Shown piece after piece: positions 28,496 to 46,757 of a DNA stretch of 64,000 nucleotides (positions are counted from its first letter, which is position 1; the number at the start of each line of letters is the position of its first letter). The stretch is from Octopus vulgaris. Lineage: Eukaryota. The stretch is from positions 115,878,001-115,942,000 of the forward strand of contig OX597821.1 of assembly GCA_951406725.2 (NCBI GenBank). The letters run 5' to 3'. The notes under the pieces were generated by a model, which searched no databases, was not told where the DNA came from, and saw nothing but the letters and a program-made list of their open reading frames with translations. The translations under genes were made by a program, and so were the position numbers.

Positions 28496-28759
28496 GGACA
28501 GTAACTTCTGAAGCAGATTCATCTATTTCACCTTTGGAAACAGTCGAACCAACTGAAACAGTTGAATCAGTCGAAACCGTTAGACCAGCTGCAGTAGTAG
28601 CTAAACCAGTTCAAACGGCTGAACCAGATCACACAACTGAACCAGTACAAACAGCTGAACCAGTACAAACAGCTGAGCCAGTTCAAACAGCTGAACCAGT
28701 TCACACAGCTGAACCAGTTCACACAGCTGAACCAGTTGGAAAAACCTCCATAAGTCAAC
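28496..28759 (+). CDS. Integrin beta-like gene, mucin-like exon A with (EPVQ/HTA)n hexapeptide repeat
   Basis: ttcaaag|GG ACA ... CAA C|gtaagt, 264 nt, phase 1-1. The 18-bp coding repeat varies at third codon positions (GTT/GTA, GAA/GAG). Confidence 0.75.
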
Positions 28760-29639
28760 GTAAGTATAATACAACGTAAGCACAAGTATAAAACTTCTTA
28801 TTAAATTTATTTTGTACTTTCTCAGATTTGTCGTCTACTTTCGAAGTAATAACTATAACATTCTAACGTTCCTTTTAGAAATTTAATAACTTATTAATAT
28901 GCAAAACTTTCAGTTTTATCACGAGCAAGGGATGTAATATATGCAAAAGTATTTGAAGTGCTAAATATTTTTGTTGGTTCCCTTTCAGTGCTGATGATGC
29001 AGACCTATGATCGAAAGAATCCTAGTATGACCATCACAACTTTTCCCCATGTACAGTGTACACAAAACCATATTATCTAGTATGTCCTTATTTGTAACAC
29101 TGCAGTGATTTCGGAGGAGAGAGGGAAGAATCTAAATAAGGGCTGCAGGTGGGACTACGGAAAGAAGGGAAGGTGGAACTCGGAGAATAGGGGTGTAAAT
29201 CTGAAGTAGGTAGGGGAAAAGTGCAAGGTAGAAGTAATGAGGAAGTGAATTTAGACCAAAAGGTGTGTACACGTTGAGGGAGAAAATGTGCTTCTGTTTC
29301 TTCTGAAAGTGTGTGGTGGGATATCCGATCTTGGAGGCCAAGTCGAAAACCGAGACGTGTTAGGTGGAGTGGTCATCGGATCGGAAATGAGGTTAGAAAA
29401 ATGAAAAGATGGGAGAAAATGTGAGTTAAAAGGAGAGGGACATCACACTTCGAAGGCTATGCATTTGCTATCAAAGAGCAGAAGATTACTAATAAATACC
29501 TAATCAACAAAAGAGACAGTGATGCCCTTGAAGTTCAAGATGCAACCGAAAATGTAGATTATGTCATATTTCTGTGTCAGACACCACACACGTACTTTGC
29601 AGCTGTCCAAAACTGTCATCAAGGTACTACCTTCGTATG

Positions 29640-30215
29640 CGACATGACGTTGTCGCAAAAACAATATATAATGCCATTCAGAAAAATACTGTTTAGGAAT
29701 AAATATAGAGAACACCCCTGTTGTTGAATACGTACACAAATCTCAACACAAGGAATACTAGTGGAACATTCCCATGAAAACATCTGTCAAGTGTAAGCAT
29801 AAGAGATCGGACATTGTTATTTGGGACAGACAAGAAAAAAGAATGTACTGTCATAGAGGTCAGCTGTCTTGCTGAAGAATATTTCTGAAAATCAAAGAGA
29901 ACGAGAATAACTATGGACAATTATTGCGAAACCCCCAACTTCTATATCCAGATTATGAATTCACATTTATACCAGTAATAATTGGAGCACTTGGTTTTGT
30001 GAGTAAATTCTTAAGTGTCAGTCTGGATAACCTTGGGTTTTTGGAAAAAGAGATCAACCCACAACTTCGCACATTACAAATACATTTTGTAAGCGGAATA
30101 GTAAAAATGTCCAAGGCTTTTATCAAATTTAAAATGTGACATTGTTTTGTTATCTGCATTACAACGATGGAGATGTGATTCTTGGTTAGAAACCAGGCCC
30201 TACCTCAGAAGAATT
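29640..30215 (+). mobile_element. Degenerate RLE-type LINE endonuclease fragment
   Basis: RSDIVIWD...VIEVSC...YGQLLRN.QLLYPDYEFTFIPVIIGALG. Confidence 0.65.
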
Positions 30216-31693
30216 TAAATGATTAGAAACAGAAGGGAACATACATACATACATACATACATACATACATACATACATACATACATACATACATACACAT
30301 CTCCGAAGAAGTTCGTCAAAAAGAGATGGGTAGAAGTTATGCTAGACCTGGGATGCCCTAGCATGAAGTACAATCGTATTCTTAACTGTCGCCTACTTCA
30401 AGAAAATTCGAATTTAAGAGGCATACGATATCTTCTGTGACAGGCGGTTGGCTACGACACTCGAGTTATATTTTGGTTGTTGCTAACCCTGACATTGAAA
30501 CATAAATTATGTTAATATATCTGGAAATGTATACGCTTATAAATCTGTAAAATCTATCCTGTGGACTTCTATAGTAAACAGGACTAATAATAATAATTAT
30601 TTTCCTTCTTTTGTGGTGAACGTATACTTGGTTATCTCTTTCTTGTAGGATCCATTACAATAGGACAATCGCTGACTTCATAGTCCCTTGACCCAATATA
30701 AACCCTTGTTTCTTGAGGCTCAAAACTGGGCAGAGGCTAATTCTCGTTAAAAGAGAAATCAGTCTGTCATACATTGTTATCACAGTAGAAACTAAATTCA
30801 ACGTTGCAGAGTTCATTATAAAACTTAAAGTGTTGTGGCCACAATATAATGCCTTTGACATAAACTGAACTGCTGATCAAAAATCGTTAGCATTACTTAT
30901 GTCGAATATAGATAATAATTCCATGTTACATTAAGTATAGTTATAATCAAGTTGTTGTTACCTCGGTTACTTAGCTGCAGGAAGCTCAGCTTCTCAACGT
31001 ACATCAGTTACACACGCAACATGGAACACTCTAATCTTGTCGCAGATAATCTCTCTTTACTTAGCATCGCATTAAAGTACTCAAATCTGCGGGAAAACCG
31101 TTTTGGGTTCAAGCATAGTGATATGGTTAATAAGTTCACTTGAATGTTACGTTGTTTCAGTTTCAATCCCAGTGCACAGCACCTTGATCATATGTTCTTA
31201 CAATAGCCTCAGACCCACACCAAACTTGCAAGTGAAATTTAGTGAAGAAATTCGTAGGAAGAGATGTTGTTGTTCTTCTGGGTTAGACTTTGTCAATAAG
31301 CTGGTTAACACCTCTATATACCCTTTGGATATCTTTTAGGGGAATCCACACGAAACACTCCTTCATTCCTTCCGTAATCCTGGTGCTCATGAAAAGGGTC
31401 ATAGACTTCCCTTTCTGATTAACAATTGTAAAAACAAAACATAAAGACAGCACAAAAACGAAAATATATGCAAAGATATCTATGCATATATTCATATACG
31501 CACACATATACACAATTACACATTTTATTATTATATATATGTATATATATGAATTGAACTGAACTAGTTTCAGCTTAAATACATACGTACATACAAAAAA
31601 TATATGTGTATGTATGTGTGTGTGTGAATGTGTGTGTGAGTGTATGTGACTGTGTGAGCATGTATCGATAATTCTTTGTTCTTGATTTAACAG

Positions 31694-31732
31694 AAACTTC
31701 ACCAGAAGTCGAAGATAAGCAGAGCAGTACAA
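31694..31732 (+). CDS. Integrin beta-like gene, mini-exon B (TSPEVEDKQSST)
   Basis: ttaacag|...A|gtaagt, 39 nt, phase 1-1, open. Confidence 0.65.
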
Positions 31733-44261: not shown

Positions 44262-45221
44262 GATAATAATAATAATAGTAATAATAATAATACTGTTGAT
44301 GATGATAATCACTATGCATAATCCAAATTATTTCCTCTGTTCTTGTTACTCTGTTTCTGTTAACTTCTACAGATTATGTAATGACAAAAGTACAAACATA
44401 GTCAGGTTATGAAGAATTGCTTATATAACATTAATAATCATATATCTACTTTCGCCGTGAAAATATCCTCAAAGATAACCCACTTGGTTTTCAGCAAACA
44501 CAGTAAGCTCCACGAGGCTCCGACAGAGGGTGGTGGCGACCCCTGTTGTACTCTTTCGCCCCAACTTTCTCTCACTCTTTCTTCCTGTTTCTTGTCCCCG
44601 ATTTCCTACGCAACCGCTGAGCCTGGATACGCATTCATCCATCCGTCGATGCTCTCGGTGTCGGGGGTTGACCTGCTTTCTTTTCTGCGGGTCTTACGAA
44701 TAGCAAAGGACCACGTTTCGGACTTCTCCCATCTTGCGAGCTCTGGGACGAAGACCGTTTACCCAACAGAAACAGCAAACACAGTAAGATGGATCATTCT
44801 GACTTGTTTGCCTTTCACAAAAAATTCAGCAGCGATCGTTTATCTTCCTTTGCATTTGCTAAAGGAATAGATCTATTTATAATATTCAAACATGCATACT
44901 CATAAATATGCTGTATTAGTACTTTTGGTATCAAATCCTGGGCATTAGCCAATATGTGAGTTTCTTTGCTTGTATTAATTTGCTTATAATATTCACAAGA
45001 TCTCCTCTTAACCTCAATAGACAGAAACCAAAGTAAGCGATTCCCAACTAATCTTTAATGAAAAGCGATGATCATCATGTTTTCCTGCTGAAGTTGCTGT
45101 GACTTTTATATATTCTATATTTTCACAGCGAAACTAAATATATGCTTGTTAAGTATATTTGTATAATTTTCGTGTACATAGTTATTTACAGATTATATAT
45201 AATCTGCGATTCCTTCTTTAG

Positions 45222-45290
45222 ATTTTTCAAGTACAATTCAAGAATCTTTTGATGAAAACATTAGTAATTTTATGGATTCAGAAATATCAG
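45222..45290 (+). CDS. Integrin beta-like gene, mini-exon H (FSSTIQESFDENISNFMDSEIS)
   Basis: ttccttctttag|...G|gtgagt, 69 nt, phase 1-1, open. Confidence 0.7.
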
Positions 45291-46683
45291 GTGAGTAAAC
45301 ATACGTTTGTCATTCTACAAACATTAAGTTATAAAACACAAAACAGCATTATATTTGAAAATTGAATATGTAAGAAGATGCACTTAATTATGCAATTATG
45401 ACTTTGATGCGTATCTCTAAATATATAGCAACATTCATAGTCTTCATCTCTGAAATCACAGGCATTAGCTTTTATTTGATATCTTTGCCTTTCCTCTTTC
45501 CTACTTCTAGCAGTTTTAATTATCATTCCGTTGCGTACTAAACAAAGTTTCAGCTATAATATCATCGTCCAAAGATCCAGCGGTTCATATCGTGTTGAAG
45601 TATCCCGTTTCAGCTCATCTGTTGTGGAGAGATTATGTCTTGATTGACATAAATTGTGGCCAAAACATTGATAACTCGCTAACTCATGACATTCAATTGT
45701 TGACAGTGGAAGTACTAACTATATACGTCATTTTCATATCAGAAAATACATTTTCAAATATATTCTTTAATTAAGTCGTTAGGATGTGATATAAAGATTT
45801 TCCATCTTTGATGAGTAGGTTGAGTGACCATTGCTGATCATGAAGATAAGCTGACACGTTAACGTCGAATAACATGGAGGAAAATATTTTAGGCCGTGAT
45901 ACGACAAGCATACCTGATGATGCACTCACTAGCCAGAAAACAACTCTCTCACATTCTCTTTAATGACTTCTATTTCATTCTTTCGGAGAAGTAGTTGATG
46001 TGAGAGTCAGAATTAGGTATGAGATACTTAGGGGGGCTTTGCTACTGGTGAGAAAGAACTGTTAACATTTCAGTCGATAAACTTACATAAGCTCTATTAT
46101 AAGCAGGATTCTTTGGCGCTTTTTTCCCAAATATCTTTTCTACACGAGTTTATTCTTTGTTTTCTCCCTTTACTTAATAGTTTCCTCCGTTGACTCCCTT
46201 ATCTAAAATATCACCTTTTTATTGTTTGACTGGTGGCATTATTTCATTCTACCATCGTCCAATCATCGTTACTTCAGTTTCTTCATCATTTACTACTTTC
46301 TTGTTCACAATCCAAGCAATAGTATCTCTTTATCTCTCTTTCTCTTCCTCTGTTTCGGATGACAGCCCGAAACGCCAGATTCTTCACTTCTCACAGTAAT
46401 CTATAGTTCACGAAGATATTACTTTATTTATAATTCAATCTGGAACTAAGAACCATGATGATCAGAAATCAAAACAGAGTGTAGATATAAATACTGGAAA
46501 TGTAAAACTACATTTTATAGAGTATCATTACAGTATTTATAGAAAATTAGAAAGAATGATAATTTATTAGAGTTTACAGTTTGGCAAATCGTCATATCTC
46601 ACAGAAAAAGTGAGAGTATTTAAATGTTACGAACTGACTGAAATCTATAGACGGTAATTCCTTATGCCATTTAATTTTTACAG

Positions 46684-46757
46684 ACTTTTGCAAGGTTCAT
46701 ACGAAATGTGGAAGTTGTATTTCGGCATCACCCTCTTGTTATTGGTGCTCCCAGCAG
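46684..46757 (+). CDS. Integrin beta subunit, PSI domain exon 1 (DFCKVHTKCGSCISASPSCYWCSQQ)
   Basis: tttttacag|...CAG|gtatat. C-x5-C-x2-C-x6-C-x-W-C pattern of the integrin beta PSI domain. Confidence 0.9.

Follow-up and report, generated by a model that had tools for sequence, protein, structure and literature searches.

An integrin beta gene of Octopus vulgaris, the 5' part of which lies in the 64,000-nucleotide stretch analysed here (the window), is expressed as one gene and one transcript in which an arm of eight mini-exons is fused in frame ahead of the PSI domain. We interpret the product as a divergent integrin beta chain whose constitutive arm, likely O-glycosylated and likely unfolded, would act as a built-in local glycocalyx, a reading to which we give slightly less than even odds (roughly 0.45). 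It builds on the exon chain and its joints, the open frame, the domain content, the divergent motifs and a neighbouring alpha gene.

The arm exons

All eight mini-exons proposed by the first-pass annotation are present at the lengths it gave, each a multiple of three and open in phase 1, with AG at every acceptor and GTAAGT at seven of the eight donors (GTGAGT at the other), and they run into the PSI exon in a reading frame free of stops (Table 1). A fixed exon scan of the 27,067 nt between the signal and PSI exons returned exactly these eight, against five in 534,000 nt of antisense control (0.25 per 27 kb), far above chance; the S/T/P cut-off of the scan was lowered from 0.25 to 0.20 once the exons were known, and at 0.25 it finds seven of the eight. 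Other micro-exon candidates near 30650, 40388, 44374 and 45015 were dropped by eye or because they could not be fitted into the contig-length sum. The mini-exons are unrelated to one another in sequence, and the first is single-copy in the genome.

Table 1. Features of the arm-bearing integrin beta gene (window positions)
Feature	Position	Strand	Details and evidence
TATA-like box (predicted)	19173..19179	+	Sequence, upstream of first exon
Non-coding first exon (predicted)	19200..19331	+	GTAAGT donor, no ATG; start uncertain
Signal-peptide exon	19449..19555	+	ATG at 19495, 20 codons, phase-1 donor, hydrophobic core (predicted)
Arm exon 1	28496..28759	+	264 nt, 88 codons; 18-nt tandem repeat, 7.7 copies, unit TAEPVQ/H
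Arm exon 2	31694..31732	+	39 nt; joint 28759>31694 GT..AG
Arm exon 3	33269..33325	+	57 nt; contig loose-end letters match 33271-33300
Arm exon 4	34577..34639	+	63 nt; inclusion by X11 contig-length sum
Arm exon 5	37093..37149	+	57 nt; joint 37149>38561 in 4/4 runs
Arm exon 6	38561..38611	+	51 nt, NET sequon; both joints in 4/4 runs
Arm exon 7	42773..42826	+	54 nt; joint from 38611 in 4/4 runs, to 45222 in 3/4
Arm exon 8	45222..45290	+	69 nt, NIS sequon; joint to PSI exon in 4/4 runs
PSI-domain exon 1	46684..46757	+	Pfam PSI_integrin E 6e-6; joint to 47945 in 4/4 runs
PSI exon 2 / hybrid-domain start	47945..48055	+	Contigs, model
Hybrid-domain exon (predicted)	49438..49519	+	
BetaI exon	50741..50872	+	MIDAS D-C-S-V-T, ADMIDAS DD -> GH; alignment to human beta1; Pfam
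BetaI exon	53784..53871	+	Pfam PF00362
BetaI exon (predicted)	54528..54594	+	Without specificity-loop disulfide; GC donor
BetaI exon	56141..56227	+	Aligns without gaps to beta3 211-232 (E-value 0.17, weak)
BetaI exon	57026..57109	+	Pfam
BetaI exon (predicted)	60658..60732	+	
Last betaI exon	62418..62600	+	Pfam E 1e-11
Hybrid exon (predicted)	63194..63270	+	

The 218 residues of the arm include 64 Ser+Thr, 17 Pro, 32 Asp+Glu and 10 Lys+Arg and no cysteine, giving a net charge of -22. The earlier description of an S/T/P/E-rich, mucin-like product holds for this composition and for the sequons (NST, NET and NIS), and has to be tempered on density, which is moderate (29% S+T, 37% S+T+P; the folded body has 11% S+T), and on exons 6-8, which are richer in aromatics. 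The arm combines the features of a PTS domain, being S/T/P-rich, Cys-free and in part tandemly repeated (the 18-nt repeat), at that moderate density; typical mucin PTS domains are denser in Ser and Thr. A proline adjoins 21 of the 64 Ser and Thr residues. The FoldIndex of the arm, -0.02 as against +0.20 for the folded body, is only marginally negative, and that of exons 6-8 is slightly positive.

Ten of the 12 arm aromatics fall within exons 6-8 (10 of 58 residues), directly beside PSI, and together with the altered ligand face described below this could point to a segment that docks onto the receptor's head or leg to inhibit it from within until proteolysis frees it; we consider such a tethered lid very unlikely, as the arm has no dibasic or furin-type site. 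The distal end prompts a different thought. Its short TAEPV-type tandem repeat is acidic and S/T-rich, varies by one unit in run X20, and resembles the repeats of selectin ligands. Like the stalks of PSGL-1, CD34 and MAdCAM-1, the arm might be a ligand itself, displaying glycans to lectins on other cells or on microbes in a receptor that tethers and then sticks, for example on blood cells. We know of no lectin partner for it, and rate this a minority possibility, one that is compatible with a glycocalyx role and does not exclude it.

Transcript evidence and splicing

Runs were classed as RNA from their intron-free GT..AG joints, none being recorded as RNA, and splicing was followed as contigs in six of the 19 RNA-like runs. 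The exon connectivity that had been predicted is seen in these contigs, which connect the signal exon, the eight mini-exons and the PSI exon: the joints from the signal exon through arm exons 1, 2 and 3, and from arm exon 5 through 6, 7, 8 and PSI to the next exon, are read directly, and two of the nine joints between signal and PSI exons (3>4 and 4>5) follow from contig-length sums. Arm exon 1 is joined to 31694 in two of four runs, and the loose end of exon 2 leads into exon 3 in X11 and X15. In X11 the 346 letters observed equal the 346 expected, so that exon 4 is included, and one contig of this run carries exons 1-8 in order plus the body. The signal-peptide exon, missing from the first-pass annotation, has been located and joins arm exon 1: in an X11 contig, the loose end that precedes 28494 is the 3' end of this exon. 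The outcome named in advance as fatal to the gene model, a PSI exon spliced straight to a signal exon or mini-exons belonging to a separate gene, did not appear; a single contig spans exon 8 and PSI in four of four runs.

At the upstream end, the length of an X15 contig fits a start of the first exon near 19216 and an X11 contig is 44 letters longer, the joint of this predicted exon being supported indirectly. Downstream, the model has 2,214 nt of coding sequence after PSI, which agrees with three contigs (2,267, 2,393 and 2,388 nt) given a 3' UTR of 53-179 nt. Organism B splices the arm too and organism D has it, and all the changes in them keep the frame; X19 (organism C) yielded low-depth exon 1 fragments only and was left out of the support.

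The first-pass annotation had seen in this arrangement a mucin-integrin chimera tunable by cassette splicing. The fusion of the arm ahead of PSI stands, and the tuning of its length finds no support. Each mini-exon could be skipped in frame, so that tissues skipping different ones would vary arm length and receptor reach, and the contigs of X3 and X9 do break at a few places, though none of these is a splice site. However, no exon-skipping joint is among the 30 joint rows listed, of 88, for the six RNA-like runs, and the donors are strong consensus sites. Nor is the 1-1 symmetry of the mini-exons evidence of skipping: each of the genome's five beta genes has a phase-1 intron between signal and PSI exons (every paralogue has a phase-1 PSI acceptor), and any exon gained there must therefore be 1-1 symmetric. 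The arm is likely included constitutively and splicing control of its length is quite unlikely, although skipping in particular tissues could still occur because contigs drop rare variants and represent six of the 19 runs.

The receptor body

The predicted chain has 1,000 residues, with ten further exons beyond the window and a stop at G000:C8:115961910. PSI is followed by hybrid and betaI domains (PF17205, PF00362), as expected of an integrin beta chain, and predicted exons outside the window supply Cys-rich EGF repeats, a tail domain and a single transmembrane helix. The octopus chain shares this plan, from signal peptide to short tail, with canonical beta chains (beta1, beta3, betaPS and the paralogue at G000:C1:87.7 Mb), and 52 of 56 reference cysteines align with it; its identity to the ten reference chains is 33-35%, and it is divergent throughout. 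What sets it apart at the N-terminus are the 218 residues ahead of PSI. That typical chains carry PSI soon after the signal peptide was borne out by ten of 11 full-length references, in which it starts at residue 33-49 (the exception, a fish beta8 model of low quality, has it at about 95); in the octopus chain it starts at residue 241 rather than within the first 50 or so.

The ligand face differs too. The MIDAS is a DxSxT variant of DxSxS with the conserved Glu kept, a form also found in two paralogues, and the exon matching beta3 keeps D217, P219 and E220 and has N215 changed to S. The ADMIDAS DD and the disulfide-closed specificity loop of the beta1/betaPS type are absent, the loop, in a predicted exon, being 13 residues shorter and lacking two cysteines. 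Loss of the ADMIDAS was considered as a peculiarity of the arm-bearing gene and rejected, being common to four of the five beta genes here. In the tail, built from predicted exons whose length fits the contigs, the HDRRE clasp and the first (talin-type) NPxY are absent and the last (kindlin-type) NPxY is kept; the paralogues on C1 (87.7 Mb) and C18 retain a clasp-type motif and both NPxY.

Paralogues, neighbours and relatives

Upstream of the genome's four other beta genes we found nothing like this exon chain; in two of them, the C1 (143.8 Mb) and C27 paralogues, the signal exon was not located. The arm-bearing gene is followed, 11.5 kb downstream and on the same strand, by the start of an integrin alpha gene, the tail of which, like that of the C27 paralogue, was not located. 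The search for orthologues in other animals that had been suggested found none beyond very close relatives in protein searches, in which blanks are weak evidence of absence. Arm exon 1 gave four matches, all to unrelated repeat proteins, a betaI exon gave none, and an EGF exon gave 17 at 50-64% identity, none of them close; among 49 matches in a representative library the only close one is a 60-residue fragment (96%), and the ESM Atlas returned a generic integrin-beta cluster only.

A relaxed, fast-evolving paralogue might simply have gathered small exons at a tolerant position, leaving an arm without a selected role, as the divergence of the whole chain, the failure of protein searches to find a distant orthologue and the unrelatedness of the mini-exons would allow. 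Against such neutral accretion, which we hold to be unlikely, speak splice pairs close to consensus at all eight exons, the inclusion of every exon in the contigs, a uniformly S/T-rich, Cys-free composition and the fact that the arm in organisms B and D has changed only in frame.

Likeness to known systems

The insect betaPS chains have a serine-rich, low-complexity stretch near the N-terminus that recalls the octopus arm; in seven of ten references PSI and MIDAS are 112-158 residues apart (13-22% Ser) as opposed to about 90. The insect insert, however, follows PSI and adds about 20-70 residues, whereas the octopus arm precedes it and comprises eight exons. Integrin beta4 lacks the specificity loop and beta8 lacks the ADMIDAS and talin site, and the fish beta8 of our reference set has a similarly divergent motif and tail; neither is known to carry a mucin arm. 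Type I membrane proteins with an S/T/P-rich, Cys-free segment are familiar from PSGL-1, CD34, MAdCAM-1 and dystroglycan, but there, on ligands of integrins or selectins, the segment is a stalk that links the head to the membrane, whereas the octopus integrin itself carries it as a free arm at the N-terminus. Oyster integrins have unusual add-ons, including an extra betaI domain and a sulfotransferase on an alpha chain, and one oyster beta chain lacks NPxY (PMC7390872); the main text of that report does not contain the words mucin, N-terminal or PSI. No natural integrin with a mucin arm on its own chain was found among the reference chains or in the literature searched, the coverage of which is incomplete.

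A working model

In the glycocalyx reading that we prefer, the ancestral phase-1 intron that follows the signal exon would have acquired the exons one at a time and imposed their symmetry on them. Once glycosylated, as its composition suggests, the arm could reach from about 4 nm (coil radius) to some 40 nm (stiff mucin rod) and could overtop the head, where it would hold bulk surfaces off and restrict binding to ligands that can get past it. From its anchor on PSI, close to the knee in the bent form of the receptor, the arm may push against the closed form, the direction being a guess. Antibodies against PSI activate integrins, and integrin activation is known to respond in trans to bulky mucins at the cell surface. 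Glycocalyx forces shift integrin conformation (PMC9856412). Because the membrane-clasp motif and the first NPxY are absent, talin would not activate the chain by its usual route, and the chain might signal through the kept kindlin-type NPxY. Its partner would be the alpha chain encoded next door. A bolder version, which we think rather unlikely, has the two genes, side by side beside NeuroD, encoding a dedicated alpha-beta pair in which talin activation has been swapped for control by the receptor's own mucin arm, a glycocalyx in cis whose reach depends on the number of repeats and perhaps also on tissue-specific exon skipping.

The finding so far concerns one paralogue in a narrow animal group, which limits its reach. 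If the arm is glycosylated as predicted, the gene would offer a ready-made test, arm-on versus arm-off, of the influence that bulk at the PSI knee has on integrin conformation. Stepwise exon gain in the intron between signal and PSI exons would represent a route to a new integrin architecture.

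The arm-bearing integrin beta and its exons

The integrin beta encoded here is a real, expressed and unusual chain, in which an arm of 218 residues separates the signal peptide from the PSI domain. Eight mini-exons encode the arm, at the lengths proposed by the first-pass annotation; each has an AG acceptor, seven of the eight carry a GTAAGT donor and one GTGAGT, and all eight are open in phase 1 and lead in frame into the PSI exon. The signal-peptide exon, which that annotation left to be located, has now been placed upstream of them.

Features of the beta gene, its neighbours and its paralogues (window coordinates; G000, source genome; C1 to C27, its contigs)
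Feature	Position	Strand	Remarks
Signal exon	19449-19555		ATG at 19495, phase-1 donor
Arm exon 1	28496-28759	+	
Arm exon 2	31694-31732	+	
Arm exon 3	33269-33325	+	
Arm exon 4	34577-34639	+	
Arm exon 5	37093-37149	+	
Arm exon 6	38561-38611	+	
Arm exon 7	42773-42826	+	
Arm exon 8	45222-45290	+	
PSI exon	46684-46757		in frame with arm exon 8
NeuroD-like bHLH coding exon	5121-6567	+	Pfam HLH, Neuro_bHLH
Integrin alpha gene	from G000:C8:115973365	as beta	FG-GAP, Integrin_A_Ig_2
Beta paralogue	G000 C1:87.7 Mb		ADMIDAS DD kept, only one of the four
Beta paralogue	G000 C1:143.8 Mb		ADMIDAS DD not kept
Beta paralogue	G000 C18:41.8 Mb		ADMIDAS DD not kept
Beta paralogue	G000 C27:18.5 Mb		ADMIDAS DD not kept

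A fixed exon scan of the interval from signal exon to PSI exon (27,067 nt) returned the eight arm exons and nothing else, as against five matches in 534,000 nt of antisense control sequence, the composition cut-off having been chosen with the arm exons already known. Arm exon 1 is present in one copy in the genome (2.8 Gb assembly, 227 contigs). Its coding sequence includes an 18-nt tandem repeat (28599-28737), in which several public sequencing runs encode Gln instead of His at 28704 and 28722. Within the intron that separates arm exon 6 from arm exon 7, a highly abundant short interspersed repeat occurs twice, in inverted copies (40780-41590), and contig depth there exceeds 100,000.

Expression and exon connectivity

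Arm exon 1 was found, whole or in part, in 20 public runs (seven studies, four organisms), 19 of them guessed to be RNA and none recorded as such. Joints were looked for in seven: assembled contigs of X1, X3, X9 and X11 (four studies) were compared with 36000-48600, and those of X11, X15, X19 and X20 with 27900-32490. The GT..AG joints 37149>38561, 38611>42773, arm exon 8>PSI and PSI>47945 occur in all four runs of the first set, and 42826>45222 in three. In X11 the letters preceding arm exon 1 match the last part of the signal exon (19524-19553); the X15 match begins where X11 enters exon 1, the signal-exon letters being read in X11 only. Joint 28759>31694 is seen in both, and both contigs continue into arm exon 3. 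A 2,783-nt X11 contig found in both stretches has 346 letters from exon 2 to PSI, the exact sum of exons 3-8, and arm exon 4 is therefore included. X19 gave fragments only; X20 is DNA-like, with introns covered, and misses one 18-nt repeat unit. Since RNA-like contigs link signal exon, arm exons and PSI, the connectivity that had been predicted is borne out, and neither a PSI exon spliced directly to the signal exon nor a separate mini-exon gene was encountered. Ahead of arm exon 1 there are 265 letters in the X11 contig and 221 in that of X15. In this 5' region (19200-19555) the longer X11 contig does not agree with the TATA box and first exon as predicted, making another start or first exon possible.

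Tuning of arm length by cassette splicing, also put forward in the first-pass annotation, would exploit the 1-1 symmetry of the exons. That symmetry fails as an argument on its own: each of the genome's five beta genes has a phase-1 PSI acceptor, so exons gained in this intron must be 1-1. No exon-skipping joint occurs among the 15 of 33 joints listed for 36000-48600 or the 15 of 55 for 27900-32490, and long contigs run through the splice sites without break; contigs drop rare variants, and this absence lowers the case for cassettes, which we consider improbable. The mini-exons showed no likeness when compared with each other, which suggests separate gains rather than tandem duplication; that the exons accrued neutrally is a reading to which we give little credence.

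The same scan upstream of the four paralogues (45-49 kb each) gave 0, 0, 0 and 2 scattered candidates. Two paralogues have a likely signal exon 12-18 kb upstream and no arm-type exon between it and PSI; for the remaining pair no signal exon could be placed, so a more distant arm could escape the scan. The first PSI cysteine is residue 241 here; of 11 full-length beta chains used as references, 10 have it at 33-49 and the eleventh, a low-quality fish model, at ~95. Sequence searches found no orthologue beyond very close relatives.

The remainder of the chain and its neighbourhood

The 30-exon gene model, predicted beyond 48055, specifies 1,000 aa, including a single transmembrane helix; its post-PSI coding length agrees with three contigs, leaving 53-179 nt of 3' UTR. 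Domain content is that of an integrin beta, several beta1/betaPS-type features are lacking, and identity to ten reference chains is 33-35%. The MIDAS (DxSxT) and its Glu are retained, the ADMIDAS DD is substituted here and in three of the other four beta genes, and 13 residues are missing from the specificity loop, as is its disulfide. A GC-AG intron is predicted after the shortened loop exon (54594/54595). The predicted tail lacks HDRRE and the first NPxY and keeps the last; two paralogues retain a clasp-type motif and both NPxY. We take these motifs to serve the clasp (HDRRE), talin (first NPxY) and kindlin (last NPxY).

The alpha gene starts 11.5 kb past the beta stop, head-to-tail, with an ordinary N-terminus; its tail was searched for and not located. 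A dedicated alpha-beta pair controlled by the arm is putative and rather doubtful. The NeuroD-like exon, with long His/Gln/Pro runs, precedes the beta gene by ~12.6 kb, and the order NeuroD - beta - alpha resembles the vertebrate NEUROD1-ITGA4 neighbourhood and could reflect ancient synteny.

A putative built-in glycocalyx

The nearest analogue found, the serine-rich insert of insect betaPS, sits after PSI and is far shorter; oyster integrins have add-ons of other kinds (PMC7390872). The accessible part of a review mentioning octopus integrins (PMC8836133) contains nothing on such an arm, the word 'integrin' is absent from the main text of PMC9712504, and a literature search covering few subscription papers found no published report of such an N-terminal integrin arm. 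The protein may already be present, unnamed, in automatic annotations.

The arm contains 64 S/T (a content nearly three times that of the body), 17 P, 32 D/E, 10 K/R and no Cys; its net charge is -22, and its FoldIndex is borderline disordered (-0.02, versus +0.20 for betaI). Simple estimates give a coil radius of 4 nm, or ~40 nm if O-glycans stiffen it. Display of putative glycans to lectins is an unlikely role, and a very remote one is that exons 6-8, rich in aromatic residues, form a tethered lid. The PSI domain lies at the knee of the bent integrin, and antibodies bound to it can force extension. Integrin conformation is subject to glycocalyx forces (PMC9856412). Because of these forces, the position of PSI and the acidic, S/T-rich composition, we favour, at a probability of about 45%, a putative function as a constitutive glycocalyx: the arm, likely always included, would be carried by the receptor itself, its bulk at PSI would favour the open form, and it would filter access, in a chain that appears to have lost the usual talin switch. 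The arm-bearing chain is a variant within the known integrin beta family.
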